A stretch of 58,063 nucleotides of DNA from Gemmatimonadales bacterium. GTDB taxonomy: Bacteria; Gemmatimonadota; Gemmatimonadetes; Palauibacterales; Palauibacteraceae. How positions within the stretch are numbered: the first letter of the stretch is position 1; each line of letters begins with the position of its first letter. Below, piece after piece: positions 18,843 to 58,063 of the stretch. The stretch lies in the NCBI GenBank assembly GCA_050114915.1, contig JASFRN010000003.1, positions 1-58,063 of the forward strand, written 5' to 3'. The translations under genes were made by a program, and so were the position numbers. The notes beneath the pieces were generated by a model. The model ran no database searches. It worked only from the letters and a program-made list of their open reading frames with translations, and had not been told where the DNA came from.

Positions 18843-18932
18843 CCGGGCGATAAGTTCTCCGGGGCCGGGAGACGGTCCGGCCGGCGAGACTCCCCAGACC
18901 AGACATCAAAGACCAGATCGAGGAGCGTGAAG

Positions 18933-19673: not shown

Positions 19674-19675
19674 GG

Positions 19676-20131
19676 GTGGAACCCGTCACGCGCTACCGTG
19701 GCGTCGCGGTGCTGGCGCTGGTGGGCCTGTTCATCTCGGCCTACCTGCTGCTCCACAATCTCGGCTACTACGGCGACCTGATCTGCGGGACGGGTTCCTG
19801 CGAGGTCGTACAGACCTCCGAGTACGCCGTATTCCTCGGGGTGCCGGTGCCGGCCTGGGGGGCGGCGTGGTACGGGGGGATGCTCGTGTTGTCGCTGCTG
19901 GCGGCGGCCCGGCCTCCGGCCGATCCACGGGGGGTGAACGGAGCAGTCCGGCTCGTCGCCCTGGGGGCCACGGCCGGACTGGTGTTTTCCGCCTATCTCA
20001 CCTCGATCGAGGCGTTCGTGCTGGATGCCTGGTGCCGCTGGTGCATCGCGAGCGCCGTGCTCACGGTCCTGATCTTCGGGCTCGCCGCCCCCTGGCGGGC
20101 GCTGCGGACGGGCAGCCGCCCGCCGAGCTGA
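19676..20131 (+). CDS. Vitamin K epoxide reductase (VKOR) family protein
   Basis: Loop cysteines CGTGSC, V-x-x-SEY, GVPVP-x-x-G, and active site WCRWC. Confidence 0.92.
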   Translation: MEPVTRYRGVAVLALVGLFISAYLLLHNLGYYGDLICGTGSCEVVQTSEYAVFLGVPVPAWGAAWYGGMLVLSLLAAARPPADPRGVNGAVRLVALGATAGLVFSAYLTSIEAFVLDAWCRWCIASAVLTVLIFGLAAPWRALRTGSRPPS

Positions 20132-40594: not shown

Positions 40595-42043
40595 CTAGTA
40601 GACGGGCAGGTCCGGGTCCACGTCCCGCGCCCAGCCGTTGATGCCCCCGGCCAGGTTCAGCGCCCGATCGAATCCGCGGCTGTGGAGGAACTCCACCACC
40701 TCGGCGGATCGCCGTCCCGTCCGGCAGAACCACACCGAGTCACGCTCGGGATCGAGGTCGCCGAGACGCGCCTCGAGCTCGTCCATCGGGATCGCCACGG
40801 CGCCGAGATCGTCGAGGTTCGACACCTCGTGCTCTTCGACCTCCCGCACGTCTACGAGGACGCCCGCCCATCCGGCGTCGATCATCTCGCGCAGCTCGCG
40901 CGCGTCCACTTCCGGCAGCGGCACGGGGAGGTGAAAGTCGTCGGGGACGTCGAACGCGGACCCTTCCTCGTCCACGCCGCAGAATGCCTCGTAATCGATC
41001 GGCTCCGTGATCGTCGGGGCGTCACCGCAGGCGGGGCAGGCCGGATCGCGTCGCACCTCGACGGTGCGGTACTCCTGTCCCAGCGCGTCGATCAGTAGCA
41101 GGCGGCCGACCAGCGGCTCACCGAGGCCCGTGATCAGCTTGATCGCCTCGGTGGCCTGGATCGAGCCCACGATGCCGGGGAGGGCCCCCAGCACGCCCGC
41201 CTCCGCGCAGCTCGGCACGAGGCCGGCGGGCGGCGGATCGCGGAACAGGCAGCGGTAGCACGGCCCGTCCGGGGCACCGAACACGGACGCCTGGCCGTCG
41301 AACCGGAAGATCGCCCCGTACACGAGCGGAATGCCGAGGAGCACGCAGACGTCGTTGACGAGGTAGCGGGTGGGGAAGTTGTCGCTCCCGTCGAGCACGA
41401 CGTCCCATCCCTCCAGGACAGCCCGCGCGTTCTCCGAGGTGAGCCGTTCGGGAACCTCCACGATCTCCACGTCTGGATTCAGGGCTTCGAGGCGGGCCCG
41501 GCCCGAGGTCGTCTTCGAGGCGCCGACGTCGTTCGTGTCGTGGAGGATCTGCCGATGCAGGTTCGAAAGCTCCACCCGATCGCCGTCGACGAGGCCGATC
41601 CGACCGACGCCCGCAGCCGCCAGGTAGAGCGCCGCGGGCGAGCCCAGGCCGCCGGCTCCGACGACCAGCGCCGATGCGGCCTTGAGCCGCTCCTGCCCGG
41701 CGGCGCCGAGGCCCGGCAGGATCAGCTGCCGGTGATAGCGGATCTTCTCCTCGCGGCTCAGCGGACGCCCTCCGGCGATCGACGGCACGATCGTGAGTTC
41801 GGCGGCGGCCGTGATCTGGCGCTCCTCCGACGTCAGGGTCCGGACGTCGCGGCCGTCGAGAAACAGATTGACATGAGGCCGCACCGAGCCGTCGTCGGAC
41901 AGGAGCCGGTCGGCCAGGGCCGGGCACTGCGTCCGCACCGCATCCAGGGCTTCGGCGACGGTTCCGGCCTCGACGTCGAGCGTCGCCCGCCCGCTCGTGA
42001 ATTCGCGCAGCGGGACCGGAACGTGGAGGCTCACCGCGGGCAC
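40595..42043 (-). CDS. Fusion of MoaD/ThiS-like Ubl, MoeB/ThiF (E1-like) adenylyltransferase and rhodanese
   Basis: Ubl ending PSIAGG continues in frame into RYHRQ, VGAGGLG, SNLHRQ, CYRC, PSCAEAGVLG, CPAC and rhodanese CRTGRRS. Start at GTG 42043 (GGAGG SD) or GTG 42034. Confidence 0.92.
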   Translation of the reverse strand: MPAVSLHVPVPLREFTSGRATLDVEAGTVAEALDAVRTQCPALADRLLSDDGSVRPHVNLFLDGRDVRTLTSEERQITAAAELTIVPSIAGGRPLSREEKIRYHRQLILPGLGAAGQERLKAASALVVGAGGLGSPAALYLAAAGVGRIGLVDGDRVELSNLHRQILHDTNDVGASKTTSGRARLEALNPDVEIVEVPERLTSENARAVLEGWDVVLDGSDNFPTRYLVNDVCVLLGIPLVYGAIFRFDGQASVFGAPDGPCYRCLFRDPPPAGLVPSCAEAGVLGALPGIVGSIQATEAIKLITGLGEPLVGRLLLIDALGQEYRTVEVRRDPACPACGDAPTITEPIDYEAFCGVDEEGSAFDVPDDFHLPVPLPEVDARELREMIDAGWAGVLVDVREVEEHEVSNLDDLGAVAIPMDELEARLGDLDPERDSVWFCRTGRRSAEVVEFLHSRGFDRALNLAGGINGWARDVDPDLPVY

Positions 42044-42477
42044 GGCGACCTCCCGTCGACGACGAGGCGCGCCGGGGCCTCGTCGCGCCAGGCGAACAGT
42101 TCGGCCCCGCCATCCGCCGATTCGGCCGCGGCGCGGTCGCCGATCACGACGTACCAGTAGCCCGCCAGCGCTTCCGCCGCGTCCAGCGCCGAGAAGTCGG
42201 CCGGACCGTGGGGGTGGGAGTGATAGAAACCGATCACGGAAGCCGTGCGGAAGAGGGGCTCGAGGTCGGCCGGATCGACGCGATACGCGTCGCGCGGCCG
42301 TTCCGCCCGGTTGGGAAGCGGCACGATGTCGACGACCGTCGCTCCCTCTCCGGTCTCGTGGCCGAGCAGCGCGCCGCAAACCTCTTCCGGGCGACCCGCC
42401 CGGGCCGCGGCGACGAGTCGTCGCCGCAGCTCTGCCGGCAGGCGGAGGGCAGGAGCCTCCGGGTCAGTCGACGGCAT
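42031..42477 (-). CDS. JAB/MPN (M67) metalloprotease
   Basis: EEVCGALLG and GFYHSHPHGPADFSALD give a complete E...HxH-x7-S-x2-D motif. Confidence 0.92.
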   Translation of the reverse strand: MPSTDPEAPALRLPAELRRRLVAAARAGRPEEVCGALLGHETGEGATVVDIVPLPNRAERPRDAYRVDPADLEPLFRTASVIGFYHSHPHGPADFSALDAAEALAGYWYVVIGDRAAAESADGGAELFAWRDEAPARLVVDGRSPCPR

Positions 42478-44395: not shown

Positions 44396-45067
44396 TCACT
44401 TCTCGTAGTAGTCGTTCACCGTCCGCTCCAGCACCCTGATCTCCGACACCCGAATGGCGGGCCGGGATCCGAAGCTACCGCATAGTGTGAACCCGGACAG
44501 GGTTCCGCGCACGTATACGAGGCGTCGTCCCTCGAACGCGGGCTGCAGATCGGCGTTCGCCAGGGCGCGGCCGATCAGTGCGAACGGCCGCTGATTGCCG
44601 CCCAGCTGGCCCGGCCCGAACAGCGTGCAGGCACCCACGTCGCGCACGGTGCCGGTGCCGACGGCCCGCATCGACGAGAATGGACCGCCCTCCAGCGAGA
44701 CGATCCGTCCCAGCTCTCCGGTGGGCGTCCGGACGGCGTAAGCCCCCGCCGGGAGCTCGAGAGACCGCACCTCGTAGAAGCTGATCGGCAGACGCGAACA
44801 GCTGGTGTCGAAGGTCGTCCTCCGGCCCCGGAGTTCGATCGACGTGTCGGTGACGGTCGCGATCGCCGTGTCCAGGCGTCCGCAGGAGTTGGGCGTGATC
44901 GGCCCCGCGAACTCGAAGGCGAACGGAGCGCCGGCGGTCACGGTGTCGGGAAACGCGGCCCACGAGACCACGGCCTCGCTGGACGTGGGCTCACCGAGTC
45001 TCCAGCAGCCCGTTGCGAGCAGGAGAACGGCGAGGATCGGTGCCGGATGGATCCTGGATGTGCTCAA
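44396..45067 (-). CDS. Hypothetical lipoprotein
   Basis: Lipobox-like LATGC, beta-rich sequence and four more Cys. Confidence 0.65.
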   Translation of the reverse strand: MSTSRIHPAPILAVLLLATGCWRLGEPTSSEAVVSWAAFPDTVTAGAPFAFEFAGPITPNSCGRLDTAIATVTDTSIELRGRRTTFDTSCSRLPISFYEVRSLELPAGAYAVRTPTGELGRIVSLEGGPFSSMRAVGTGTVRDVGACTLFGPGQLGGNQRPFALIGRALANADLQPAFEGRRLVYVRGTLSGFTLCGSFGSRPAIRVSEIRVLERTVNDYYEK

Positions 45068-45145: not shown

Positions 45146-45907
45146 ATGCACGTACGAAGCAGGCGGACGCGCGCGTTCCTCGAACGCCGTGTCCGGGGGC
45201 GTGGTTACGGGGGGATGCCCGTGGGTGACAACGAACGTTCGGCCATCGCGCCGAGCCGACGGAATTCCGAACGGCAGCGGCGTGCGCTGTGGGTGGGGTT
45301 CGCCATCTCGGCGGCCATCCACGCGCTGTTGCTGTTCGGCTGGCGTTCGTCGTCCCAATCCGTCCAGGGGTCGCTCGCCGCCGGACCGAGGTCCGGCGAC
45401 TATCGAGCCGCCGCCGGCGGTGGGGCGATGACCGCGATCTCCATTGCGCCCCCGAAGCCGATCGAAGTGCCCGCTCCGCCCGCCACGCGTCCCCGCCTGC
45501 GTGATCCCCAGGTGGACGTACAGACGACGAGTCCGCCGATCATCGCGGCCTCCCTGTCGGGTCCCGGAAACCAGGGCGAGCGCTCCGGTCCGGGCCTGCC
45601 CGGCGCCGAGGGCGCCGGGGACGGGGGGTCCGATCAGCGGGGTGGAGACCGCTGGAGCGATCCCACCCCCCGGTCGATCACGCCGCGCTGGGATCCGCCG
45701 CGCGAGCTGAAGGGGCATCGCGTGACCTTCCGCGTCCAGGTGGACGCGACCGGCGAGCCGACGGGCGAGATCGAGATCCAGCCGAAGATCGCCGAATCGG
45801 CGTTCATGCGCCGGGTTCGGAACGACCTGCTGACCATGGATTATCTGCCCGGACGGCGCGACGGACGGCCGGTCCCGGGCTGGGCGGAATTGACGCTCAC
45901 CTTCTGA
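45146..45907 (+). CDS. TonB-like energy transducer
   Basis: TM with SAAIH (SxxxH), Pro/Gly-rich linker, and a TonB_C-like domain (V-x-F-x-V-x-VD-x-x-G...Y-x-PG-x-x-DG-x-PV...F). Start uncertain. Confidence 0.7.
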   Translation: MHVRSRRTRAFLERRVRGRGYGGMPVGDNERSAIAPSRRNSERQRRALWVGFAISAAIHALLLFGWRSSSQSVQGSLAAGPRSGDYRAAAGGGAMTAISIAPPKPIEVPAPPATRPRLRDPQVDVQTTSPPIIAASLSGPGNQGERSGPGLPGAEGAGDGGSDQRGGDRWSDPTPRSITPRWDPPRELKGHRVTFRVQVDATGEPTGEIEIQPKIAESAFMRRVRNDLLTMDYLPGRRDGRPVPGWAELTLTF

Positions 45908-45955
45908 TCGGGGCTTTGTTTCCCCGCTTCGCCAGCCCGTCTATATTCAGCCGCC

Positions 45956-46009
45956 ATGGCTGATTTCCTTCGTGCACAACGCTTCTCCGCCGTCTCTCGT
46001 CCGGTGTGA
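45956..46009 (+). CDS. Putative 17-aa upstream ORF coupled to sprA
   Basis: MADFLRAQRFSAVSRPV*. TATATT lies 8 nt upstream, and the stop overlaps the sprA GTG (GTGA). Confidence 0.3.
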   Translation: MADFLRAQRFSAVSRPV

Positions 46010-49000
46010 GCGGACCCTCGAGTCCCGGGGCCCCCCTCCGGTGTGCGTACGCCGTCCGCCGTGTCCTTCGGACGGCCGCCCTCCCATTGCTCCTGTGGTC
46101 TCCGGGTCTCGCGCCCGCGCAGGAGGTCGTGCGCCCCGACAGCGTGGCCGTCGACTCCATTCCGTCCGACACCCTCGATGTCGCCCGGGGCGCCGGGGGC
46201 GACTCGGTGATCGTCCTCGAGCCGCTCCAGGCCGAGGTCCCGGACACGGTGAAGGGTCTTCGCGTCGGGCTCGGCCGGATTCCGCTCGTCTGGTCGACCG
46301 ATCTGCGGGTCGCGGTCTCCCAGGCCCAACCCGAGGCGCGACAGCCGGGCGAGCCGGTGTTCGAGTGGCTCGCCGACCGCATCCGGGACGAAGAGGTGAG
46401 GCGGGCGGCGCGGCGGGACACGATGTGGGCCGCGATCCTGGATCTCGACAAGCTCCCGCCGGGCTTCGACGCGCGCCGGTTCTTCGGCCGTGACACCACG
46501 AGTCTCGTCGTCGACTCGGCCGGCCGTCCGGGACCGCGGCGAGGCAACGTGGATCTGCTCCCGGAGGCGCTCGCCGGGGTGGCGGACCTCGATCTCGACA
46601 TCGAGGGGACCGGCCAGATCGGCTCGCAATGGGAGTCGTTCGATCCCTGCACGGTGACCGCCGGCCAGCGCTGCAACCCGAGCGCCATTCCGACCATCAA
46701 GCCCGACTTCCAGCTCAAGGCCAGGGTCCAGGGGCTGATTTCGGAGCGCGTGCACGTGGACGTCGACTTCGACCAGACGCGCGAGTTCGACGCGACGAAC
46801 AACCTGCAGGTCTGGTACGAGGGGAAGCCGGGCGAGATCCTCGAGCGGGCCGACGTGGGCGAGGTCACGCTCGAGATGCCGCGCGGGTCGCGCTTCATCT
46901 CGCGCGGCATCCCGGCCGGCAACTTCGGCCTCAGCGCGCGCGGCCGCCTCGGCCCGCTGACGCTTCGCGGCGTCCTGGCGGAACAGAACGGCAGCGTGAC
47001 CTCTCGAAATCTCACGCTCGACGTGGGTGGCGGCGAGACCGGCGTCCTCCAGGATCTCGAGACGGTGGTGGACGATGCCAGCTACACGAGCGGGCAGTTC
47101 TTCTTCATCGTCGATCCACGCGACCTGGCCGGCTATCCGGACGTCGACGTGACGTCGCTGCAGGCCGCCGACGCCCCGGCGAATCTGCGGCCCGCCTCGG
47201 GAATCAAGCTGTATCGGCACGAGGTGCAGGCGGGGCAGCAGAACATCGAAGACGGGGTGATCCAAGCGCGTGCGATCGCCCGGCGACCCGCCGGCGCGGA
47301 TCCCGCGCTCCCCGACTCGGCCGAGTTCCAGGGCTTCTTCCGTCCGCTGGTCGAGGGCGAGGACTACGTCGTGCACAGCAGCGGCCTGTGGATCGTGCTG
47401 AAGTCGCGCGCCCTCGAAGGCGAAGCGCTCGCCGTGACGTACGTGACGGCGGCCGGCGACACGGTGGGCGACTACAACGCCGAAGCCCTGTTCCGGGAGA
47501 TCGCCAACACCGGCACCGGCCAGCTCCCGGAGCTCGAGCTCCTGCGCGACCCGGCCACGCATCGGCCGGGCGGCGTGACGTGGGAGCGCGAGATGCACCA
47601 GGTCTACCGGATCTCGAGCTCCGACGACGTCGAGGCCGGCAGCGTCCAGCTCACGATCTCGCAGGGTCCGATCGAGTCCGGTCCGATCGTGCGCAACCTC
47701 GACGGGTCGGACTACAGCTTCCTCCAGATCTTCGGGCTCGACGAGCAGCCGACCGACGACAGGCTGGACGGTGGCCGGATCTGGCGTCCCGCCGCCTCCG
47801 GGGGGCAGGGCATCGTGACCGGCAGCTTCCTGGTGTTCCCGACCCTGGAGCCGTTCAAAGATCCGCCGCCGATCGCCGCGCTCGACGGCACGGCCTTCCC
47901 GCTCGCCGGGGGAGACCGGAACGTCGACATGTATGACGAGCCTGTCGATCAGCTGAGGCGCTCCAGCTTCCGCTACCGGCTCAACTTCCAGTACCGCGCG
48001 CGCAGCTCCGGCCGTGCGAGCGAGTTTTCGCTCGGCGCGATCGGGATCCGCGAGGGCAGCGAGCGCGTCACCCTCGACGGACGCGACCTCGAGCGCGGCC
48101 GCGATTACGCGATCAACTACGAGATCGGGCAGCTGGAGATCCTCCGGCCCACCGAGCTGTTCGGCACCAGCCAGAGTCCCGATCTGGAGGTGCAGTTCGA
48201 GCAGAAGCCGATCTTCCAGGTCCAGCCGACCAGCATTCTCGGGCTCACCGGCCAGTACAAGTTCGGCGAGAACAAGACGATCGACTTCGTGGGCCTGTTG
48301 CAGCGCGAGGGGTCGGTCCTGAACCGACCCGAGCTCGGCACCGAGCCCGGGGCCGTGAGCCTGGGCGGGGCCGTGGCCGATTTCGAGTTCCAGCCGGCGG
48401 CCCTGGACCGGTTCGTGAACGCGCTGCCGGGGATCAGCACCGACCTGCCCTCGAGCGTGAACTTCACCGCCGAGGTGGCCGGCTCCCTGCCGACGACGAA
48501 CCGGAAGGGCCTGACCTACGTCGACGATTTCGAGGGCAGCTCACGCCTCCGCATCGCCCTCGGGAGCAACGCGTGGCGGCGCGGCAGCGTCGTCAGCCGC
48601 GCCGACGCGGACGGCGACGACTTCCTGCCCGACGTGCCCGACCTGTCGAACCAGCTCCGGGGCGTATGGCAGTCACAATGGTCCTCCGACGGGCGAATCC
48701 AGGGTCCCCTTCCGACCAGCGAGATCGACCCGCAGATCAACACCCTGAATCCGCAGTCCACCGAGAGCGTGCTCTGGGTGTCGCTCAACGATGCGCCCCA
48801 GGGAGAGAACGGGTGGTTCACCATCACCCAGACCCTGTCGGAGACCGGGATCGACCTGACGGCCACGGAGTTCCTCGAGTTCTACGCCCTCACGCTGAAT
48901 TCCACGTCGTCGCGCATCGCGCTGATCATCGACATCGGTACGGTGTCCGAAGACGCCCTGGTCGCCGACTCGCTCGGCCTCCCGGCCGGCGTCGGCGTGC

Positions 49001-52000
49001 TCGACCAGGAGGTCGATCCTCTCGTCGGCGTGTGGGGCAACCAGGACGACACCGGGCTGTGGGACCAGGCCTGCGTCGCGGAACCCAACGTCACGGCCTA
49101 CCCGCTCAACGATCCGCGCGCCAACTGCACGAACAACAACGGCCGCGAGGACACCGAAGACCTGAACCGCGACAACTTCCTGAACCAGGACGAGCGCTAC
49201 ATCCGGTTCGTCGTGCCGCTGAACGGTCCGTCGCCGTACTTCGACCGCGAGACGTCCGGGAGCTTCCCGTTCCGGCGTTACCGCATCCCGCTGGCGCTGC
49301 CCGACCTGCTCGAGAACGTCACCGCCGGGGCGCGCCAGAACGTGAAGCACATCCGGCTCACCTTCGCGAGCGACCGGGCGGAGACGGTCCTCCTCACCCG
49401 GATGGAGTTCTCCGGGTCGCCGTGGCTGAAGCGCGGCGGCACCGGGAGCGTCGACGGGTTCGTGGGCGACGACCCCGGCACGGCCGGTCAGGTCGCGGTC
49501 GGCCCCATCGCCACCACGGACGGCGGGTACGTGTCGCCGCCGGGCATCTCGGACCAGCAGGCGCAGAGCACCGACGAGATCACGGCCGGTTCGCAGCCGA
49601 TCAACGAGCAATCGCTGCGGCTCCTGTTCGAAGACGTCCCCGCCGGGCAGCGGGTCGAGGTGTACCGGCGCTTCACGGAGCGACCGCGAGACTTCCTCCT
49701 CTATCGACAGATGCGCGCCTGGGCGCTGCCGGTGGAAGGCGACTTCGGACCCGATGCGCCGCTGCGCTTCTACATGCGGCTCGGATTCGACACCGAGAAC
49801 TTCTACCTCTATCGGACCCCGCTGCAGCCGCCGGTGGGCGACTCGCCGCAGCGGGAGGACTGGACCCCGGAGCGGTTCGTCGACTTCGACCGCTGGATCG
49901 AGCTGCGTGCGGTCGCGGAGCAGGAGCTCATCGCGGCCGGCGGGACCCTGCCGCCCGATTCCACGATCACGGTGTGGGACGTGGACGTCTTCCCGGACGG
50001 CGACAGCACGCACGCCGTCGTGGTCAGTGACCGGTCGCGGGCTCCGAACCTGGCGGCGGTGCGCGAGATCGCGATGGGCGTCGAGAACGTCGGGGACATC
50101 ACGGCGGGTCCCGGCGAGCTCTGGATCGACGACCTGCGGCTCGGCGACGCGACGGACCGCGCCGGCAGCGCGGTGCGGGCGGGCGTGGCGGTCGATCTCG
50201 CAGACATCGCGCACTTCGAGACGAACCTCACCCGGCGAAACCCCTTCTTCCGCCAGCTCGGCGGCACGCCGAGCTACGAGGCGCAGAACACGTTCGACTC
50301 ACGGGCGCGCCTGGAGTTCGGGCGGTTCCTCCCGTCCGGCCTCGGGCTCGCGATGCCGGTCGAGTTCCAGCATTTGTCGGACAGTTCCACGCCGTTCTTC
50401 ACGCAGAGCGGCGACGTGCTGGCGGAGCGGATTCCGAATCTCCGCACGCCGTCCAATTCCTCGACGCTGTTCAGCGTAGGGCTGTCGAAACGGACTCCGT
50501 CGGAGAATCCGATTCTGAATGCGACGATCGACGGCCTGACGCTGCGCTACTCCCGCCGCTCGCTGGAGCAGGTTGCGACCCAGAGCGAGACGCAGGGCCG
50601 ATCGTGGAGCGCCTCCGCCACGTGGTCGCGCTCGGTCACCGACCTTTCGTTCCCGATGCTGCCGGGCTTCCTGCGCACCCTGCTTGACGGCCTGCCGGGG
50701 TTCATCTCGAACTCGACGGTCGTCGAGAACCTGAAGAACCTCCGGTTCCGCTACACGCCGCGGCAGCTATCGGCCGGGGCGAGTCTGAACCAGAACCGGA
50801 CGGAGCGCCGCAGGTTCACGAGCTCGGTGCGCGGCGCCGAAACGGCCGTCGCGCCGACGATCGATCGCCAGCACACGCTCGCGCCACGGGCCGGCTTCCA
50901 GCTGCAGCCATTCCCGTCGCTCGTGGCGGGTCTGAACATCAGCGGTGTCCGCGACCTGGTCGATCCCTCTCTCAGGCTCGACGGCCCCGCGGCGGTGCAG
51001 GTGCTCGAGGACCAGCAGAGCGAGTTCCTCGGCCTGGCGATCGGCTGGGAGATGCAGCGCGCGGTCACCACCAACATCAGCTATCAACCCGAGCTCGCGA
51101 GCTGGTTCGACCCGCGGTTCACGCTGAACACGACCTATCAGTCGAGCCGCAATCCCTCGTACGTCACCTCGCTAGCCGAGAACGCGGACACGACCTTCGT
51201 GCGCGACGTTCGCCTCGGGCGCGACTGGACGCTGGACGTCAACGTGAAGCCGGTCGACCTGCTCACCATGCTGGGCGTTCCGCGCGGACCCGAGGCCGAG
51301 GGGCTGGCGGCCGGTGTACGCTCGGTGTGGGATCGGCTGCGTCCCGTTCGCTTTTCGTGGACGCGCACCGTGGCAGCCTCCTACGATCGGCGGGAGCTCG
51401 ACCCCCGGTTCGTCGATCAGCTCGTGTTCAACGGGTTCGAGCGGCTCCGGTTTCTCGAGGAGGGAGACACCGCATCGTCCGCGACCAACCGGCGCCGGTT
51501 CCAGCTCAGCGGCGGCGTGGACCTGCCCGTGAACCTCGCCGCGGAGATCGACTACGGCTGGACCGACAACGACGCGTACAACTTGCGCAGCCGGCGCGGC
51601 ACCTACGAGACGGAGTGGCCGTCCGTGCGGCTGCGCTGGCGGGGCGTCCCGATCCCGGGCTTCCTCGAGGAGCGCATGCGCACGATCACGCTCACCGGCC
51701 AGTGGCGGGTCCGTGACCGGGAGATCCGGACGTCGACGGGCCAGGACCAGGGGATCCAGAGCCTCGACCGCTCGGTGATCGTCACCTTCGTGTTCATGAA
51801 CGGTTTCAATCTCAGCTACGAGCTGACGAACAGCCGCAACGAGCGCACGGACGGCTCCGGGTTCAGCCGCTCCATCCGTAACTCCCACACCGTCCGGGGA
51901 ACGGGCACCGTGCCCCCGCCGGGCCTGCTCTCGTTCGCGAAGAACCCGCTGCGCCTGACGGCCGAGTTCGTCCTGAACGGCAATAGCGACTGCCGCGAGC

Positions 52001-52275
52001 TCGGTGGCACCGGCTTCACGGGGACGACGAATCCCTCGACGCTCGGTGGCGAGGGCTGCGTGGCACACATCGATCAGACCCAGAACTCCGTTCGCCTCGC
52101 GGCGGACACCGACTTCGCGAGCGGTCTCGGCGTCGGCGTACAGTTCCAGTGGGTGCGCCGCGCAAGCGCGGTCGGCACGCAGCAGACGTCCAATCAGTAC
52201 AACTTCGACGTGTTCGGACGCTTCCTGCTTCGCTCGAACACGTCCGACATCCCGCCTCCCGCCGCTACGCGATGA
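46006..52275 (+). CDS. sprA: SprA/Sov-like giant outer-membrane beta-barrel (T9SS translocon homologue)
   Basis: 2089 aa with a signal peptide. SprA-type segments recognised: VDFDQTREFDATNNLQVWYEG-x-x-GEIL...GEVTL, GSERVTLDGR-x-L-x-RG-x-DY-x-INYEIGQL, EDLNRDN-x-LN, GELWIDDLRL. Amphipathic strands throughout. Confidence 0.85.
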   Translation: MSGPSSPGAPLRCAYAVRRVLRTAALPLLLWSPGLAPAQEVVRPDSVAVDSIPSDTLDVARGAGGDSVIVLEPLQAEVPDTVKGLRVGLGRIPLVWSTDLRVAVSQAQPEARQPGEPVFEWLADRIRDEEVRRAARRDTMWAAILDLDKLPPGFDARRFFGRDTTSLVVDSAGRPGPRRGNVDLLPEALAGVADLDLDIEGTGQIGSQWESFDPCTVTAGQRCNPSAIPTIKPDFQLKARVQGLISERVHVDVDFDQTREFDATNNLQVWYEGKPGEILERADVGEVTLEMPRGSRFISRGIPAGNFGLSARGRLGPLTLRGVLAEQNGSVTSRNLTLDVGGGETGVLQDLETVVDDASYTSGQFFFIVDPRDLAGYPDVDVTSLQAADAPANLRPASGIKLYRHEVQAGQQNIEDGVIQARAIARRPAGADPALPDSAEFQGFFRPLVEGEDYVVHSSGLWIVLKSRALEGEALAVTYVTAAGDTVGDYNAEALFREIANTGTGQLPELELLRDPATHRPGGVTWEREMHQVYRISSSDDVEAGSVQLTISQGPIESGPIVRNLDGSDYSFLQIFGLDEQPTDDRLDGGRIWRPAASGGQGIVTGSFLVFPTLEPFKDPPPIAALDGTAFPLAGGDRNVDMYDEPVDQLRRSSFRYRLNFQYRARSSGRASEFSLGAIGIREGSERVTLDGRDLERGRDYAINYEIGQLEILRPTELFGTSQSPDLEVQFEQKPIFQVQPTSILGLTGQYKFGENKTIDFVGLLQREGSVLNRPELGTEPGAVSLGGAVADFEFQPAALDRFVNALPGISTDLPSSVNFTAEVAGSLPTTNRKGLTYVDDFEGSSRLRIALGSNAWRRGSVVSRADADGDDFLPDVPDLSNQLRGVWQSQWSSDGRIQGPLPTSEIDPQINTLNPQSTESVLWVSLNDAPQGENGWFTITQTLSETGIDLTATEFLEFYALTLNSTSSRIALIIDIGTVSEDALVADSLGLPAGVGVLDQEVDPLVGVWGNQDDTGLWDQACVAEPNVTAYPLNDPRANCTNNNGREDTEDLNRDNFLNQDERYIRFVVPLNGPSPYFDRETSGSFPFRRYRIPLALPDLLENVTAGARQNVKHIRLTFASDRAETVLLTRMEFSGSPWLKRGGTGSVDGFVGDDPGTAGQVAVGPIATTDGGYVSPPGISDQQAQSTDEITAGSQPINEQSLRLLFEDVPAGQRVEVYRRFTERPRDFLLYRQMRAWALPVEGDFGPDAPLRFYMRLGFDTENFYLYRTPLQPPVGDSPQREDWTPERFVDFDRWIELRAVAEQELIAAGGTLPPDSTITVWDVDVFPDGDSTHAVVVSDRSRAPNLAAVREIAMGVENVGDITAGPGELWIDDLRLGDATDRAGSAVRAGVAVDLADIAHFETNLTRRNPFFRQLGGTPSYEAQNTFDSRARLEFGRFLPSGLGLAMPVEFQHLSDSSTPFFTQSGDVLAERIPNLRTPSNSSTLFSVGLSKRTPSENPILNATIDGLTLRYSRRSLEQVATQSETQGRSWSASATWSRSVTDLSFPMLPGFLRTLLDGLPGFISNSTVVENLKNLRFRYTPRQLSAGASLNQNRTERRRFTSSVRGAETAVAPTIDRQHTLAPRAGFQLQPFPSLVAGLNISGVRDLVDPSLRLDGPAAVQVLEDQQSEFLGLAIGWEMQRAVTTNISYQPELASWFDPRFTLNTTYQSSRNPSYVTSLAENADTTFVRDVRLGRDWTLDVNVKPVDLLTMLGVPRGPEAEGLAAGVRSVWDRLRPVRFSWTRTVAASYDRRELDPRFVDQLVFNGFERLRFLEEGDTASSATNRRRFQLSGGVDLPVNLAAEIDYGWTDNDAYNLRSRRGTYETEWPSVRLRWRGVPIPGFLEERMRTITLTGQWRVRDREIRTSTGQDQGIQSLDRSVIVTFVFMNGFNLSYELTNSRNERTDGSGFSRSIRNSHTVRGTGTVPPPGLLSFAKNPLRLTAEFVLNGNSDCRELGGTGFTGTTNPSTLGGEGCVAHIDQTQNSVRLAADTDFASGLGVGVQFQWVRRASAVGTQQTSNQYNFDVFGRFLLRSNTSDIPPPAATR

Positions 52276-52293
52276 GCCAGGGTTGAACGGTCC

Positions 52294-52311
52294 CCGGAGG
52301 CTCTCCTCCGG
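52294..52311 (+). other. Perfect 7-bp hairpin between sprA and comEA that overlaps the comEA SD
   Basis: CCGGAGG-CTCT-CCTCCGG; the SD GGAGG is at 52310-52314. Confidence 0.5.
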
Positions 52312-52319
52312 AGGCCGTC

Positions 52320-52979
52320 ATGCTGCGACTCACCGCGACGGAACGAAGAACACTATCGCTGGCCGTGGCACTGCTCGGCCTCGGGACCGGCGTGCGCCTG
52401 GCGCTGGACCCCGGTCCGGCGGAGTACGCCTGGCAACCGACCAGCGCTGAGCGGCCCGCCGAAACGCTCGACGAAGTGCGCCGCTCGGTGGCCGACACCC
52501 TCGCCCGCGCCGCGGAGGCCGAGCGTCCTCTCGCGCCCGGCGAGACGATCGATCCGAATCGGGCGGACGCCGTCCAGCTACAGCGGCTGCCCGGCGTGGG
52601 ACCGGCGCGGGCCGCGGCCATTCTGCGCGAACGCGAGCGAGGGGGCCCGTTCGCCACGCCCTCGGATTTGACGCGGGTCTCCGGCATCGGCCCGGCGCTC
52701 GTCGAGCGCTGGTCGGACGCGGTCCGCCTCTCTCCGCCGCGCCACCCGATTCGCCCGCCCGACCGGGCCGCCGCGACGGAGTCCGGTCGGGTCGACCTGA
52801 ATCGGGCACATCCCAAGGAACTGGAGCAAATCACGGGGATTGGGCCGGCCCTGGCCCGCCGCATCGTGGATCACCGGAAGCGCCGAGGCCGCTTCGATAC
52901 GGTGGACGAGCTGCTCGAGATCCCGGGAATCGGCGCGAAAACACTGGAAATCGTGCGAAAACAGGCATACGTGCGGTGA
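52320..52979 (+). CDS. comEA: ComEA family DNA-binding protein with two helix-hairpin-helix modules
   Basis: N-terminal TM, then IDPNRAD...LPGVGPARA...F...DL-x-RVSGIGP and VDLNRA...ITGIGPALARRI...F-x-TVDELLEIPGIG. Confidence 0.9.
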   Translation: MLRLTATERRTLSLAVALLGLGTGVRLALDPGPAEYAWQPTSAERPAETLDEVRRSVADTLARAAEAERPLAPGETIDPNRADAVQLQRLPGVGPARAAAILRERERGGPFATPSDLTRVSGIGPALVERWSDAVRLSPPRHPIRPPDRAAATESGRVDLNRAHPKELEQITGIGPALARRIVDHRKRRGRFDTVDELLEIPGIGAKTLEIVRKQAYVR

Positions 52980-53057
52980 TCGGATCGTCCCCCGGGCCCG
53001 CTTTCCGCGGCTGATTCGCCGGGATCGCGCCCGCGGTTCGGGCCCGTCGCCTGGGGC

Positions 53058-53073
53058 GGGCACGCAAGTTGCG
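53058..53073 (+). promoter_or_regulatory. Putative sigma54 (-24/-12) promoter upstream of pilB
   Basis: gGGCACGcaagTTGCg, with GG at 53059-60 and GC at 53071-72 (N10 spacing). Matches TGGCACG-N4-TTGC except at the first base. Confidence 0.65.
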
Positions 53074-53173
53074 CCCCCCGAAGCTGCGCAATGTGCGGCA
53101 TCCATCGCCGGAAGCCGCCGGGACTTTCAGGTGCCGCCCGTGTCGGCAGGGCGAGCTCAAAGCACGGACGACG

Positions 53174-54886
53174 ATGGCATCGATCTCACTGGGAAGCGAA
53201 CAGATCGGGGAGCTGCTGCTCCGGGCGAACCTCGTCAGCCGCGAGGAACTCGACAAGGCGCTCGAACAGCAGAAGGAGACGGGTACGCGTCTCGGATTCG
53301 CGCTGGTAACGAACGGCGCGGTATCGGAGGCCGACCTGACCCGTGTCCTGTCCCGCCAGTTCAAGGTACCGGCGATCGATCTCTCCAACGTCGAGATCGA
53401 CGCCAAGGTCCTCAAGCTCGTCCCGGCCGACTTCGCCAACAAACACCTGATCCTCCCGGTGCGTCGCGTCGGCCGCACGCTCACCGTCGCGATGGCCAAC
53501 CCCACCGACCTGAGCGTCATCGACGACCTGAAGTTCGTCACCCGGTTCGACGTCGACCCCGTGGTCGCGGGGGAATACACGCTGCGCAAGGCGATCGACC
53601 GCTACTACGAAATCGGCAACGACGGTCTCGGCGACTTGCTCGAGGAGCTCGAGGACCAGGAAGTGGAGGTCGTCGAGGAGGAAGAGGAGGTCTACTCGGC
53701 CTCGCAGCTCGCCGCCCAGGTCGAGGAAGCGCCGGTCGTCCGCCTCATCAACGGCCTGCTGACGGACGCCGTGAAGCGGGGCGCCTCCGACATCCACATC
53801 GAGCCGTATGAAAAAGAAGTCCGTGTCCGCTACCGCATCGACGGCACGCTCCAGGAGATCATGAAGCCCCCCACGCGGATGAAGGCCGCGCTGATCTCGC
53901 GTGTGAAGATCCTCGCCGACCTGAACATCGCCGAGCGCCGCGTACCGCAGGACGGCCGCATCAAGCTGAAGATCGGGCGCCGCGTGATCGACTTCCGTGT
54001 CTCGACGCTCCCGGTGCTGTTCGGCGAGAAGATCGTGCTCCGCATTCTCGACAAGGGGAACCTGACCCTCGATCTCGAGAAGTTCGGCATGGAGGAACGG
54101 GCCGAGAAGCAGTTCCTCGAAGCGATCGCACAGCCGTACGGCATGGTGCTCGTCACCGGTCCGACCGGGTCCGGTAAGACGACGACGCTGTACAGCGCGC
54201 TGAGCCGGATCAACACGGGCGATACGAACATCATGACGGCCGAAGACCCCGTCGAGTACAACCTCCGCGGGATCAACCAGACGCAGGTGAGGACGGACAT
54301 CGGGATGACGTTCGCTGCCGCCCTGAAGGCATTCCTGCGCCAGGACCCCAACATCATCATGGTCGGTGAGATCCGGGACCTCGAGACGGGCAGCATCGCG
54401 GTCAAGGCCGCGCTCACCGGCCACCTCGTCCTTTCGACGCTACATACGAACGACGCGGCGTCCACCGTGACCCGCATGATCGACATGGGCATCGAGCCCT
54501 TCAACGTGGCCTCGGCCGTCAACCTGATCACGGCCCAGCGCCTGGTCCGCCGGATCTGCAACAACTGCCGGGTGGAGGCGCGCTACACGCCTGAAGTGCT
54601 CGAGGCCTCGGGGCTGACCGAGGAAGAAATCCGCTCGACCACGTTTCACCGCGGCGAAGGCTGCGATGCGTGCAACGGGCAAGGGTACAGCGGACGCCAG
54701 GGCCTCTACGAGGTCATGGCGATGACGGCCGAGCTCCGCAGGATGATCCTGCAGGGGTCCTCGGCCGCCGAGCTCAAGGAGGCCGCGGTGCGCGGCGGCA
54801 TGCTGACCCTGCGCATGGACGGGCTCTCGAAGGTGCGTAAAGGCATCACCACCCTGGACGAAGTCATCAAGGAGACGACGCTGTGA
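53174..54886 (+). CDS. pilB: Type IV pilus assembly ATPase
   Basis: MshEN-like N-terminus, ASDIHIEP, AERRVPQDGR, GPTGSGKTT, TAEDPVEY, LRQDPNII-x-VGEIRD, TGHLVLSTLH and a Zn tetracysteine motif. Confidence 0.95.
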   Translation: MASISLGSEQIGELLLRANLVSREELDKALEQQKETGTRLGFALVTNGAVSEADLTRVLSRQFKVPAIDLSNVEIDAKVLKLVPADFANKHLILPVRRVGRTLTVAMANPTDLSVIDDLKFVTRFDVDPVVAGEYTLRKAIDRYYEIGNDGLGDLLEELEDQEVEVVEEEEEVYSASQLAAQVEEAPVVRLINGLLTDAVKRGASDIHIEPYEKEVRVRYRIDGTLQEIMKPPTRMKAALISRVKILADLNIAERRVPQDGRIKLKIGRRVIDFRVSTLPVLFGEKIVLRILDKGNLTLDLEKFGMEERAEKQFLEAIAQPYGMVLVTGPTGSGKTTTLYSALSRINTGDTNIMTAEDPVEYNLRGINQTQVRTDIGMTFAAALKAFLRQDPNIIMVGEIRDLETGSIAVKAALTGHLVLSTLHTNDAASTVTRMIDMGIEPFNVASAVNLITAQRLVRRICNNCRVEARYTPEVLEASGLTEEEIRSTTFHRGEGCDACNGQGYSGRQGLYEVMAMTAELRRMILQGSSAAELKEAAVRGGMLTLRMDGLSKVRKGITTLDEVIKETTL

Positions 54887-55989
54887 TGAACGAATCGACG
54901 AACGCGAACCTCCGGCCTCTCCTCGAGGAGATGATCGAGCGGGGGGCGTCCGACCTGCACATCACGGTGGGCCAGGTGCCGAAGCTGCGCATCGACGGTT
55001 CGCTGCGCGACAGCCACTACGGGTCGCCCCTGGCCCCGCAGGACAGCCAGGCGCTGGCCTTCTCGGTCCTTTCCGACGACCAGCGCGAGCGGTTCGAACG
55101 CGAGGACGAGCTCGATCTTTCCTTCTCCGTGCAGAACCTGTCCCGCTTCCGCGGCAACGTGTTCCGCCAGCGTGGTTCCGTCGCGATGGCGATCCGGCAG
55201 ATTCCGTTCGAGATCCTCGGATTCGACGAGCTCGGGCTGCCGAACGTCGTCGCCGAGCTGGCCGAGCGACCGCGCGGCCTGGTCCTGGTGACCGGTCCGA
55301 CCGGTTCGGGGAAGTCGACCACGCTCGCCGCGATGCTCGACAAGATCAACAGCGAGCGCACCGGCCACATCATGACGGTCGAGGACCCGATCGAGTTCGT
55401 CCATCGCCACAAGCGCTGCATCGTCAACCAGCGCGAGGTCGGTTCGGATACGGGCTCGTTCGCCCGCGCCCTCAAGTACGTCCTGCGGCAGGACCCGGAC
55501 GTGATCCTCGTGGGTGAGATGCGAGACCTGGAGACGGTGCAGGCCGCCCTGACGATTGCCGAGACGGGTCACCTAGCGCTCGCCACGTTGCACACGAACT
55601 CGGCCGCCGAGTCGATCAACCGGATCATCGACGTGTTCCCGGCGCACCAGCAGCAGCAGGTGAGGGCGCAGCTGGCCTTCGTGCTCGAAGGCGTGGTCAC
55701 GCAGGCACTGCTCCCGAAACGCACCGGGCAGGGCCGGGCGATGGCCATGGAGGTGCTGGTGGCCACCCCGGCGATCCGCGCCATGATCCGCGAGGACAAG
55801 GTGCACCAGATCTACTCGGCCATGCAGGCGGGGAAGAAGTTCGGGATGCAGACCCTGAACGATTCCCTGTACGGTCTCTACATGCAGGATCTGGTCACGA
55901 TGGAGGAGTGCGCCCGCGTCAGCCCCGACCCGACCGAGCTCAAACGGATGATCGGCGAGCCGGAAGCCGCCGCCGCGCACGTACGTTGA
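54886..55989 (+). CDS. pilT: Type IV pilus retraction ATPase
   Basis: GASDLHITVG, FRGNVFRQRG, GPTGSGKST, EDPIEF, GEMRD, ETGHL...TLHT and AIRAMIRE. Start is ATG 54886 or GTG 54883. Confidence 0.95.
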   Translation: MNESTNANLRPLLEEMIERGASDLHITVGQVPKLRIDGSLRDSHYGSPLAPQDSQALAFSVLSDDQRERFEREDELDLSFSVQNLSRFRGNVFRQRGSVAMAIRQIPFEILGFDELGLPNVVAELAERPRGLVLVTGPTGSGKSTTLAAMLDKINSERTGHIMTVEDPIEFVHRHKRCIVNQREVGSDTGSFARALKYVLRQDPDVILVGEMRDLETVQAALTIAETGHLALATLHTNSAAESINRIIDVFPAHQQQQVRAQLAFVLEGVVTQALLPKRTGQGRAMAMEVLVATPAIRAMIREDKVHQIYSAMQAGKKFGMQTLNDSLYGLYMQDLVTMEECARVSPDPTELKRMIGEPEAAAAHVR

Positions 55990-56029
55990 CCGGCCCAGAC
56001 TCGCGCATAGCCAGGGAGATCACTTAGCC

Positions 56030-57229
56030 ATGCCCGTCTTCAACTACAGCGCCCGCACCGTATCGGGTGAGCTGCGCCGCGACGAGATCGACGTCCCGAC
56101 GAAGGACGACGTCATCGCGTTTCTGCGCAGTCAGCGCCTGATCCCGGTATCGGTACGGGAGAAGCCGAAGGCGCTGAAGCTGTCGTTCGGCAAGAAGGCG
56201 AAAACCCGCGACATCGTCATCATGACGCGGCAGTTCGCCACGATGGTCAACGCGGGCCTGCCCCTCGTCCAGGCCCTCGACATCCTCGTCAAGCAGGCCG
56301 ACAACGAGCTCCTGAAGACGACGCTCGAGGGCGTCCTGCACGACGTCGAGTCCGGAAACACGCTGGCCGACGCCCTCGGCGACCAGCCGAAGGTGTTCAG
56401 CCCCCTGTACGTCAACATGGTCGCCGCCGGCGAGACCGGCGGTATCCTCGACACGATCATGAACCGGCTGGCCGTGTTCCTCGAGAAGAGCGAGGCGCTG
56501 CAGCGCAAGGTGAAGGCGGCGATGATCTATCCCGGCGTGATCAGCTTCGTCGCCGTGGCCGCGATCATCGTTCTCCTCCTGTTCGTGATCCCGACCTTCC
56601 AGGAGATGTTCGCCTCGTTCGACCAGACGTTGCCGCTGCCGACGCGCGTCGTCATCGGCATGTCGGCGTTCCTGCAGGGCTACTGGTGGGCGCTGATCGC
56701 CGGCGGGATCGGCGGGACGATCCTGTTCCGGAGCTGGATCGCGACCGACGGGGGACGTCTCACCTTCGACCGCATGTTGCTGCGGCTGCCGATCCTCGGG
56801 AATCTCGCCCGCAAGTCGGCCGTGGCCCGGTTCACCCGTACGCTCGGCACCCTGCTGAGCTCGGGCGTCGCGATCCTCGAGGGCCTGGAGATCACCGCGA
56901 AGACGTCGGGCAATCGCGTCATCCACGACGCGGTGATGAGCAGCCGCAGCTCCATCGCCGGCGGTGAGTCGATTTCCGAGCCGCTCAAGCGCGCGGAGGT
57001 CTTCCCGCCGATGGTCACGCAGATGATCAGCGTGGGCGAAGAGACCGGCGACCTCGACGGCATGCTCACCAAGATCGCCGACTTCTACGACGACGAGGTC
57101 GACGTGGCGGTGGAAGGCCTGCTGAAGGCGATGGAGCCGGCGATGATCGTCATCCTCGGCTCGATCGTGGGCGGCATGATCGTCGCGATGTACCTGCCGA
57201 TCTTCGGGGTCATCAACACGATCCAGTAG
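56030..57229 (+). CDS. pilC: Type IV pilus inner-membrane platform protein (T2SS F family)
   Basis: TRQFATMVNAGLPL, LYVNMVAAGETGG, AMIYP, FPPMVTQMISVGEETG and AMYLPIF. GGAG SD. Confidence 0.95.
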   Translation: MPVFNYSARTVSGELRRDEIDVPTKDDVIAFLRSQRLIPVSVREKPKALKLSFGKKAKTRDIVIMTRQFATMVNAGLPLVQALDILVKQADNELLKTTLEGVLHDVESGNTLADALGDQPKVFSPLYVNMVAAGETGGILDTIMNRLAVFLEKSEALQRKVKAAMIYPGVISFVAVAAIIVLLLFVIPTFQEMFASFDQTLPLPTRVVIGMSAFLQGYWWALIAGGIGGTILFRSWIATDGGRLTFDRMLLRLPILGNLARKSAVARFTRTLGTLLSSGVAILEGLEITAKTSGNRVIHDAVMSSRSSIAGGESISEPLKRAEVFPPMVTQMISVGEETGDLDGMLTKIADFYDDEVDVAVEGLLKAMEPAMIVILGSIVGGMIVAMYLPIFGVINTIQ

Positions 57230-57268: not shown

Positions 57269-58063
57269 TCACCCGGTGCCGGCCAGCACCCCCATCGCGA
57301 TCGCTCCGAGCGTGAACAGCGCGAGGATTCGCGGCAGCGTGTGTCGTGGCCGGGTCAGCAGGTAGAGGGTGAGAACGCCGCCGACGGGGGCGGCGAACAG
57401 GTAGGTCAGGATGAAGGTCATGAACACCTGCCCGACCCAGTTCCCGGCCAGCGCCCCGACGCCGGGCAACCCCGCCCCCGAGACGAGCGGTACCAGGACA
57501 CCGGGCACCACGTCCAGCAGCAGGAACACGGCGCTGAAGCCGGCCCCCAGCTCGACGTAGAGCCGAACCTCCGCCCGGGCCTTGCGGCGAAAGGGCGCCC
57601 ACAGGATGCCGAGGCCGGAGCGCAGGAGAAGCCCGAGCGGCGATGCCGGTTCGTTGTAGTAGTAGAACAGCCGCAGCCGGTGGGTCCAGCGCGTGAGGGC
57701 CCGGAACCCGGGGACGTCGTCGAGCCAGTCCGGTCCCGCTCCGAGGCTGATCATGCCGCACAGGACCACGACCGCGAACACCGCCTCGAGGGCACCGGGC
57801 TCGCCGATCACGGTCCCGAGTGCCATGCCGGCCGCGAAGAGGACCAGCATGTCGCCGCCCAGGCGAAGCCACCGGCGGGAGCGGCCCCGCCGGCTCCACG
57901 CCTTCACCCAGTCGGGCGTCTCGTCGAGCCTTCGGTCGTCCAGCGGGGGCATGCCCGCCATCTCCACCGGGGGACGGCCCGTCTGCTCCCGCGCTTCCTG
58001 CTCGCGGTTGTGCTCGCGCACCATCCGGTTGATCGCGCCGGCATCGATCAGCCACCAGACGAG
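57269..58063 (-). CDS. Hypothetical membrane protein, 5' end outside the window
   Basis: The frame stays open from 58024 to the window edge (LVWWLIDAGAINRM...). Several hydrophobic helices. Confidence 0.65.
   Translation of the reverse strand, partial: LVWWLIDAGAINRMVREHNREQEAREQTGRPPVEMAGMPPLDDRRLDETPDWVKAWSRRGRSRRWLRLGGDMLVLFAAGMALGTVIGEPGALEAVFAVVVLCGMISLGAGPDWLDDVPGFRALTRWTHRLRLFYYYNEPASPLGLLLRSGLGILWAPFRRKARAEVRLYVELGAGFSAVFLLLDVVPGVLVPLVSGAGLPGVGALAGNWVGQVFMTFILTYLFAAPVGGVLTLYLLTRPRHTLPRILALFTLGAIAMGVLAGTG

Follow-up and report, generated by a model that had tools for sequence, protein, structure and literature searches.

[quoted passage not shown] The solved barrel (6H3I) has an external cap and a lateral opening, and ruvA adjoins sprA in Bacteroidota, a linkage that is not used as evidence here. 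To our knowledge, SprA has so far been studied in Bacteroidota only. The protein has already been described as FCB-wide (PMC12611786), and one review states that a T9SS "may" be present in Gemmatimonadetes (PMC11285876); TXSScan scored Gemmatimonas aurantiaca T-27 as T9SS=0 (Abby 2016, Table S3). A search of the literature gave no specific report that ties SprA to ComEA or to pili or that describes a Gemmatimonadota T9SS, and neither secretion nor competence is discussed in two genomics papers on the phylum.

Two further described systems are relevant. Diderm type IVa pilus (T4aP) and competence systems include the Myxococcus-type pilB-pilT-pilC-pilS-pilR-pilA cluster and the ComEA proteins of Vibrio and Thermus, which are accompanied by PilQ. 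In Riemerella anatipestifer, an FCB-group organism whose natural transformation involves no secretin, DNA uptake requires a periplasmic helix-hairpin-helix (HhH) protein, and a non-secretin barrel serves at the outer membrane (PMC8459023). The component recovered there in a transposon screen and proposed for this step is a CarboxypepD_reg β-barrel with a partner protein, not SprA, and no pilus ATPases are involved (PMC8459023).

Here, we analyzed a 58,063-nt stretch of Gemmatimonadota DNA (the window), in which six plus-strand open reading frames (ORFs) encode, in order, a TonB-like protein, SprA, a ComEA-type protein, PilB, PilT, and PilC. The ORF positions were verified, and the spacers measure 98, 44, 194, ~0, and 40 nt, as the first-pass annotation had reported; the ~0-nt junction is an overlap of the pilB stop with the pilT start. 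Family models also upheld that annotation's naming of SprA, the ComEA-type protein, PilB, PilT, and PilC.

Gene content of the window

The second gene (46006..52275, + strand) encodes an SprA/Sov orthologue, a giant outer-membrane β-barrel. Like the Bacteroidota proteins, its product is a single chain of ~2,000 aa (2089 aa counted from GTG; 2062 aa in the public gene call) that passes the equivalog model TIGR04189 (483.5 bits, cutoff 200, with the match in four stretches); it also passes Pfam SprA_N (47.1 bits, cutoff 27). The match to F. johnsoniae SprA (6h3i) had an E value of 1.3e-32 with the single sequence and 1.8e-74 with a profile. Modeling of the barrel had been proposed as a check at the outset. 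An AF2 model of residues 890 to 2089 (1200 of 2089 aa; pLDDT 76.9; ~26 long strands in the modeled part) retrieved four SprA structures from the PDB as its top matches (E from 3e-39 to 7e-32; TMq 0.41 to 0.43), and the next match of this C-terminal model was at 6e-6. Compared to F. johnsoniae SprA (2403 aa), the window protein is ~300 aa shorter and shares ~13% identity in structural alignment.

The window protein also differs from Bacteroidota T9SS SprA in coming from another phylum, with no GldKLMN, PorV, or CTD cargo seen in the window. Pfam scanning of the 44 other candidate ORFs in the window yielded no Gld, PorV, PilQ, or ComEC domains, in agreement with the initial statement that gldKLMN, porV, pilQ, and comEC are absent from it. 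Rescanning eight window ORFs that lack a Pfam match against NCBIfam did not change this result, and NCBIfam gave no match for the unknown ORFs hyp223, hyp251, the small ORF after pilC, and the 1038-aa insert. Beyond the six-gene block, the 58-kb window holds no further T9SS or pilus-system genes, and among 16 related loci, the annotated flanks likewise contained no T9SS component other than SprA. The T9SS C-terminal sorting domain (PF18962) was matched by none of the window proteins and did not occur in the Pfam lists of related loci, together a very small sample.

The gene downstream of sprA (52320..52979, + strand) encodes a protein with a hydrophobic N terminus, serving as a putative membrane anchor or signal, followed by two HHH_3 domains (Pfam, E 2e-37, two stretches), the fold of ComEA. 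It scored 100.1 bits against TIGR00426 (cutoff 53.1) and matched ComEA structures 8dss/8dfk and 2duy in the PDB. Because its score against the full-length comE subfamily model TIGR01259 (113.7 bits) is below the cutoff of 152.35, we refer to it as ComEA-type by domain and not as a certified orthologue. In contrast to the diderm competence systems, this gene lies upstream of pilB, not beside comEC, and its product carries two HHH_3 domains. A GC-rich hairpin (52287..52318, + strand) fills the spacer between sprA and comEA and covers the comEA Shine-Dalgarno sequence GGAGG; stable hairpins were predicted, without shuffle comparison, in 16/16 folded sprA-comEA spacers of the window's clade. Given that this 44-nt spacer is hairpin forming and that no promoter was found in it, sprA and the downstream comEA-type gene are probably cotranscribed. 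The promoter scan of the region detected no sigma-70 site.

The first gene of the block (45146..45907, + strand) had been labeled TonB-like, and this label is weakly supported. An N-terminal transmembrane helix and a Pro-rich linker are visible in the sequence, and the C-terminal domain weakly resembles TonB_C. The window protein itself has no Pfam or NCBIfam match (E<0.01), and subthreshold Pfam matches to TonB_C or TonB_2 were obtained for 7 of 12 homologues (best E 0.0036); the family profile, however, retrieves TonB2 (2k9k) first from the PDB (E 2e-4), followed by other TonB structures. The gene was found only in the window's clade, where it is kept in all loci that extend far enough upstream and always adjoins a divergent gene (44396..45067, − strand) for a 223-aa putative lipoprotein (lipobox LATGC; no Pfam/NCBIfam match). 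Elsewhere, divergent lptFG occupy its place upstream of sprA. The TonB-like gene is a clade-specific upstream neighbor of sprA. Its co-orientation 98 nt upstream of sprA, its retention within the clade, and the weakly supported TonB_C-like C terminus of its product would suit a minimal secretion channel in which the TonB-like protein couples proton motive force to SprA in place of GldLM. We judge such a channel very unlikely, since the gene is clade specific and no other lineage carries it upstream of sprA. It is further opposed by the lack of ExbB/MotA and ExbD domains in any window ORF, by the subthreshold TonB_C assignment, and by a weak terminator-like hairpin with a T-rich tail (45947..45963, + strand) between the two genes, although terminator-like sites in the region, including this one, are no commoner than shuffled expectation.

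Conservation of the sprA neighborhood

A new finding is that all sampled Gemmatimonadota lineages retain the order sprA-comEA-(pilB)-pilT-pilC. The arrangement recurs in 15/15 close-clade loci and 29/38 distant-clade loci with enough downstream sequence, and pilT-pilC occur without pilB in some Longimicrobiales loci. SprA identity between the sampled lineages is only 25 to 37%, and both flanks differ, leaving this block as the sole part of the neighborhood common to all of them. The arrangement is far from chance, and the first-pass annotation's refuting condition of a nonconserved sprA-comEA-pil adjacency was contradicted phylum-wide. Such long retention usually means coregulation or a functional link.

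Within the block, sprA is followed by comEA in all 17 informative loci of the window's clade and in 45/51 distant-clade loci; Gemmatimonadaceae and a third Gemmatimonadota cluster show the same order. Six loci have an intact sprA without comEA (L030, L035, L038, L073, L085, and L086). Two of these, L085 and L086, lack the pil genes as well, and at the corresponding site their neighbor L082 carries an insertion of sprA-comEA-pilT-pilC-psd. In many loci, one or two M28 peptidase genes or a 1038-aa ORF lie between sprA and comEA.

The SprA profile search returned almost only Gemmatimonadaceae, so that other phyla were reached through cluster representatives, with one or two contexts each. Two loci that fall outside the SprA clusters of Gemmatimonadota have sprA without comEA or pil genes, namely a Krumholzibacteria contig (L170), where sprA is intact, and L168. 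One Latescibacterota contig carries a ComEA-like gene 5 nt after sprA and no pil genes, and because of this contig we retain a SprA-ComEA link among the readings. SprA and the ComEA-type protein could be a functional pair, with the HhH protein acting at the SprA channel or through it, for example when DNA or nucleoprotein is taken up or exported, and with the T4aP motor recruited alongside in Gemmatimonadota. The conserved order, the short hairpin-bearing spacers, and the lack of a canonical T9SS in G. aurantiaca by TXSScan are consistent with this pairing, which we nonetheless regard as unlikely. The loci in which sprA stands intact without comEA argue against it, as do the M28 peptidase genes that often separate the two and the single example seen outside Gemmatimonadota. 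In addition, the solved SprA barrel is closed by its external cap and opens to the side. R. anatipestifer offers a precedent for an HhH protein working with a non-secretin barrel, but the screen there did not yield SprA (PMC8459023).

On the other side of sprA, lptG-lptF are divergent from it in Gemmatimonadales, Longimicrobiales, and Gemmatimonadaceae, accompanied in the last by mlaE-mlaD, and also in Krumholzibacteria, Latescibacterota, and L168. An M28 peptidase gene directly downstream of sprA recurs across phyla. Divergent lptFG and the M28 peptidase are the most widely conserved neighbors of SprA seen; its conserved neighbors are lptFG, the M28 peptidase, comEA, and pilBTC, unlike those of the Bacteroidota T9SS protein. 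These neighbors raise the alternative that SprA functions with outer-membrane and lipopolysaccharide (LPS) biogenesis and that the pilus genes are bystanders. SprA could then share its regulation with LptFG (and MlaED), and one conceivable role would be that of a T9SS-type exporter that delivers LPS-attached cargo. We consider this alternative quite improbable: in the window's own clade lptFG do not adjoin sprA, the divergent adjacency may reflect a shared regulatory region only, and we know of no biochemical link between SprA and LptFG or LPS biogenesis.

Type IV pilus genes, sigma-54 element, and PilQ

The three distal genes correspond closely to those of diderm T4aP systems, with PilB and PilT passing equivalog or subfamily cutoffs. 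PilB, the extension ATPase (53174..54886, + strand), scored 753.7 bits against TIGR02538 (cutoff 675.65) and 61.7 bits against NF053729 (cutoff 38); it matches Pfam T2SSE and MshEN, and its N terminus carries the MshEN c-di-GMP-binding motif. PilT, the retraction ATPase (54883 [or 54886]..55989, + strand), scored 491.3 bits against TIGR01420 (cutoff 319.1). PilC, the inner-membrane platform protein (56030..57229, + strand), has two T2SSF domains (Pfam, E 7e-65), and its best NCBIfam match is PilC of the Myxococcus type, with a score of 483.6 bits, which is below the cutoff of 700. In close relatives, the genes form a T4aP cluster of classical layout, pilB-pilT-pilC-(small ORF)-pilS-pilR-pilA.

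About 100 nt upstream of pilB lies a sigma-54-type −24/−12 promoter element, GGCACGcaagTTGC (53059..53072, + strand), which is the sole match within the 58-kb window. The element is kept in 19/19 comEA-pilB spacers of the window's clade and in 0/29 spacers of distant clades, so that in the window's clade pilBTC has its own conserved, predicted sigma-54 promoter. In this respect the locus departs from the Myxococcus-type pil cluster, since here the element precedes pilB and not, or not only, pilA.

The position of sprA beside pilBTC, in a window without pilQ, would allow the pilus to cross the outer membrane through SprA instead of the PilQ secretin. We rejected this replacement, which we consider extremely improbable, because a Gemmatimonadales contig bears a canonical pilM-pilN-pilO cluster with AMIN/Secretin (PilQ). 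The order to which that contig belongs also keeps sprA-comEA-pilBTC, and in some loci sprA lacks nearby pil genes. The PilQ evidence comes from Gemmatimonadales and not from the window's own clade or genome: among metagenome loci anchored on PilR, the closest relative (L088) shows only glycosyltransferases downstream of pilA, and PilQ was not reached there.

A neighborhood of separable modules

The first-pass annotation had proposed that the six genes form one new envelope machine, a proposal that our data do not support; its idea of a repurposed SprA-like pore is weakened. A single machine is disfavored because pilBTC has a separate predicted sigma-54 promoter and continues into pilS-pilR-pilA in relatives, because a PilQ cluster is present in Gemmatimonadales, because sprA persists intact where comEA-pilT-pilC are absent, and because only one clade has the TonB-like gene, with no ExbBD beside it. 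It is instead probable, in our judgment, that the locus is a conserved envelope-gene neighborhood of separable, individually known modules.

Within such a neighborhood, sprA encodes the T9SS-type translocon orthologue, a protein that occurs throughout the FCB superphylum, and SprA may act as a protein-export channel in Gemmatimonadota. The ComEA-type protein would be anchored in the inner membrane, face the periplasm, and bind incoming double-stranded DNA. The pilB-pilT-pilC genes would be transcribed from their own sigma-54 promoter, presumably upon activation by PilSR, and their products would drive T4aP extension and retraction, with the pilus crossing the outer membrane via a conventional PilQ secretin encoded elsewhere. 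Together, the pilus and ComEA may support twitching and/or DNA uptake, the latter as a putative competence function. A more far-reaching suggestion, which we think rather improbable, is that SprA without GldKLMN and PorV has become an outer-membrane channel tied to the ComEA-type protein (and to the pilus motor in Gemmatimonadota) as a route for DNA or nucleoprotein, perhaps also in other non-Bacteroidota FCB phyla.

If the link is coregulation only, the locus would be an ordinary pair of envelope systems. These data place sprA between lptFG and the M28, comEA, and pilBTC genes, in an old, stable neighborhood whose modules are separable and whose comEA-pilBTC part is shared phylum-wide in Gemmatimonadota.

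Gene content of the locus

ORF coordinates and family scans confirmed the arrangement described in the first-pass annotation: six plus-strand genes, namely a TonB-like gene (45146 to 45907), sprA (46006 to 52275), comEA (52320 to 52979), pilB (53174 to 54886), pilT (54883 to 55989), and pilC (56030 to 57229), with intergenic gaps of 98, 44, 194, ~0, and 40 nt in a window of ~70% G+C. The scans identified SprA/Sov (TIGR04189 equivalog, 483.5 bits; cutoff 200), a ComEA-type protein (two HHH_3 domains), PilB (TIGR02538, 753.7 bits), PilT (TIGR01420, 491.3 bits), and PilC (two T2SSF domains). Flavobacterium johnsoniae SprA matched the window SprA with E values of 1.3 × 10−32 (single sequence) and 1.8 × 10−74 (profile), and an AlphaFold model of the C-terminal 1,200 residues (pLDDT 76.9; ~26 long strands) matched four SprA structures (E = 3 × 10−39 to 7 × 10−32; next fold, 6 × 10−6). 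The window SprA is clearly homologous to the F. johnsoniae protein of known structure; source records label the window protein's homologues Gemmatimonadota. The PilB N terminus (53174 to 53360) carries an MshEN domain and an MshE-type c-di-GMP-binding motif (NF053729, 61.7 bits; cutoff 38), a hint that c-di-GMP may regulate pilus extension.

The first gene's own sequence had no database match. Its protein comprises a transmembrane (TM) helix, a Pro-rich linker, and a C-terminal domain. Because this domain gave weak TonB_C matches in 7 of 12 aligned family members (best E = 0.0036) and among PDB entries the family profile ranked the C-terminal domains of TonB highest (2k9k; E = 2 × 10−4), the label "TonB-like" is acceptable but soft. 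Among the loci compared, the gene was confined to the window's clade (SprA >50% identical); no ExbBD genes lie near it, and a weak terminator-like hairpin lies 3' of it. A TonB-energized SprA would accord with the gene's position beside sprA and is unlikely.

Housekeeping functions account for the remaining window genes (among them uvrA-like, gyrA, ccm genes, a sigma-70 factor gene, serA, and rpe); gld, porV, pilQ, and comEC are absent from the window, as previously stated. At 40595 to 42379 (minus strand), the longest ORF encodes a ThiS-like segment joined to ThiF/MoeB and rhodanese domains; relatives encode ThiS or JAB separately beside ThiF-rhodanese, and the fusion may be an artifact of a start called too far upstream. 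Genes for a DsbA-like thioredoxin and VKOR lie side by side (18927 to 20131, plus strand); with the nearby ccmB/E/F genes for cytochrome c maturation and a periplasmic redoxin gene (21.7 to 26.2 kb), they make up an ordinary envelope redox neighborhood.

Gene order within and beyond Gemmatimonadota

Synteny was compared across 80 Gemmatimonadota sprA loci from a genome scan plus extra contigs fetched by protein look-up, and a tblastn survey of sprA loci resolved two deep groups. The window's clade carries rpe, aminotransferase, and lipoprotein genes on the minus strand and TonB-like, sprA, comEA, pilB, pilT, pilC, a small ORF, pilS, pilR, and pilA on the plus strand; comEA was present in 17 of 17 loci with at least 1.5 kb of downstream sequence and the full block in 15 of 15 with at least 7 kb. 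In the distant group (Gemmatimonadales and Longimicrobiales; SprA 35 to 42% identical by tblastn), lptG-lptF is divergent from sprA, which precedes an optional M28 peptidase gene, comEA, pilB, pilT, and pilC or, in a variant without pilB, comEA-pilT-pilC-psd. There, comEA occurred in 45 of 51 loci and comEA, pilT, and pilC together in 29 of 38. Two more SprA sequence clusters, also Gemmatimonadota, have sprA-M28-M28-comEA-pilB-pilT-pilC divergent from lptGF and sprA-comEA-pilB-pilT-pilC divergent from mlaD-mlaE-lptG-lptF. Since the order recurs in every lineage with differing flanks, sprA-comEA-(pilB)-pilT-pilC is the sole element common to all. The adjacency, whose lack of conservation the first-pass annotation had listed among the observations that would refute its proposal, is conserved in the Gemmatimonadota lineages sampled.

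Several flanking features were also observed. In the window, a multi-TM membrane-protein ORF without a family match (57269 to 58024, minus strand) is convergent with pilC; the small ORF-pilS-pilR-pilA follows pilC in nine other clade members, including the two closest whose sequence extends beyond pilC. In metagenome contig L088, pilS-pilR-pilA is likewise detached from pilBTC, and YfhO-like, PMT_2-type, and GT2 glycosyltransferase genes 3' of pilA (12133 to 18885) may form a pilin glycosylation module. In Gemmatimonadaceae, mlaE-mlaD accompany the divergent lptG-lptF. Gemmatimonadota-type sprA genes, 55 to 56% and 36 to 37% identical to the window's, occur on contigs binned as "Akkermansiaceae" and "Gammaproteobacteria" (L013 and L053), which are probably misbinned.

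SprA has been described as FCB specific and, among FCB phyla, missing only from Chlorobiota (PMC12611786). An exhaustive search of cluster representatives returned 1,780 SprA-like clusters, and gene neighborhoods were retrieved for three that lie outside the SprA clusters of Gemmatimonadota. Divergent from lptGF were sprA-M28-rimP-nusA in Krumholzibacteria, sprA-M28-prmA in a member of a cluster including Latescibacterota, and, on a Latescibacterota contig with no pil genes, sprA followed 5 nt on by a 134-aa TM+HHH_3 ComEA-like gene. The sprA-comEA pair thus occurs in two phyla, the second represented by one example; among the contexts examined, pilBTC adjoins sprA in Gemmatimonadota only. Given these orders inside and beyond Gemmatimonadota, no neighbors of sprA are as widely conserved as lptFG and the M28 peptidase gene. 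Divergent lptG-lptF was seen in Gemmatimonadales, Longimicrobiales, Gemmatimonadaceae, Krumholzibacteria, and Latescibacterota (L020-L086 and L168-L172), often with M28 3' of sprA. A SprA linked primarily to LPS and outer-membrane biogenesis would fit this partnership; we consider it quite improbable.

Candidate regulatory elements and separability of the modules

A sigma-54-type −24/−12 element, GGCACGcaagTTGC (53059 to 53072, plus strand), lies ~100 nt 5' of pilB, with no second match in the window. All 19 comEA-pilB spacers from the window's clade retain it, compared with 0 of 29 from the distant group. This conserved element implies that pilBTC has its own promoter. The pilSR pair lies just 3' of pilBTC in relatives, and the element suggests that the genes for the pilus motor are themselves regulated through PilR/sigma-54. 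A GC-rich hairpin with 14-nt arms is predicted at 52287 to 52318 (plus strand), occupying the 44-nt sprA-comEA spacer and covering the comEA GGAGG. Comparable hairpins of differing sequence were predicted in 16 of 16 folded window-clade spacers; the element may serve as an attenuator between the two cistrons or may control translation.

The phylum also has a conventional T4aP secretin: a Gemmatimonadales contig encodes pilR, pilins, pilM, pilN, pilO, and AMIN+Secretin genes. A SprA standing in for the secretin would suit a window lacking pilQ and is, alongside this cluster, unlikely. The Gemmatimonadales PilQ (L167, 12745 to 14845) was annotated as an AMIN gene (320 aa) that overlaps a Secretin_N+Secretin gene (399 aa), which may reflect a frameshift, an assembly error, or a truly split secretin.

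At two loci (L085 and L086), sprA, divergent from lptGF, is followed directly by a Na/alanine symporter gene; in the related L082, comEA-pilT-pilC-psd lies between the two, and sprA is full length in all three. Elsewhere, M28 peptidase genes lie between sprA and comEA, and one genome has three unrelated ORFs there. A true SprA-ComEA functional pair, favored by the recurrence of the pair in a second phylum and disfavored by these loci, is improbable, though slightly less so than the LPS-centered role. The modules are separable, as seen in the pilB promoter, the PilQ cluster, L085 and L086, the intervening genes, and the clade-limited TonB-like gene. The first-pass interpretation is thus supported in part: the synteny is conserved, and the proposed joining of the genes into one new envelope machine is unsupported, given the promoter, the PilQ cluster, and sprA without comEA or pil genes.

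Favored reading: a conserved neighborhood of known systems

The best-supported reading, which we favor with moderate confidence, is a conserved envelope neighborhood of known systems. An SprA-type translocon, with sprA probably cotranscribed with comEA, would adjoin a sigma-54-controlled T4aP motor working with a PilQ from another locus, and the pilus together with ComEA would serve DNA uptake and/or twitching. A review states that T9SSs "may" exist in Gemmatimonadetes (PMC11285876), and TXSScan lists none for G. aurantiaca T-27 (T9SS = 0, T4P = 0; PMC4793230, Table S3). R. anatipestifer depends for transformation on an HhH protein in the periplasm and an outer-membrane CarboxypepD_reg barrel, and the hits of the transposon screen did not include SprA (PMC8459023). 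Our literature search found no paper connecting SprA with ComEA or pili. The sprA-comEA-pil synteny is real and unreported in the papers searched, and the locus offers a tractable route to the role of SprA outside Bacteroidota.
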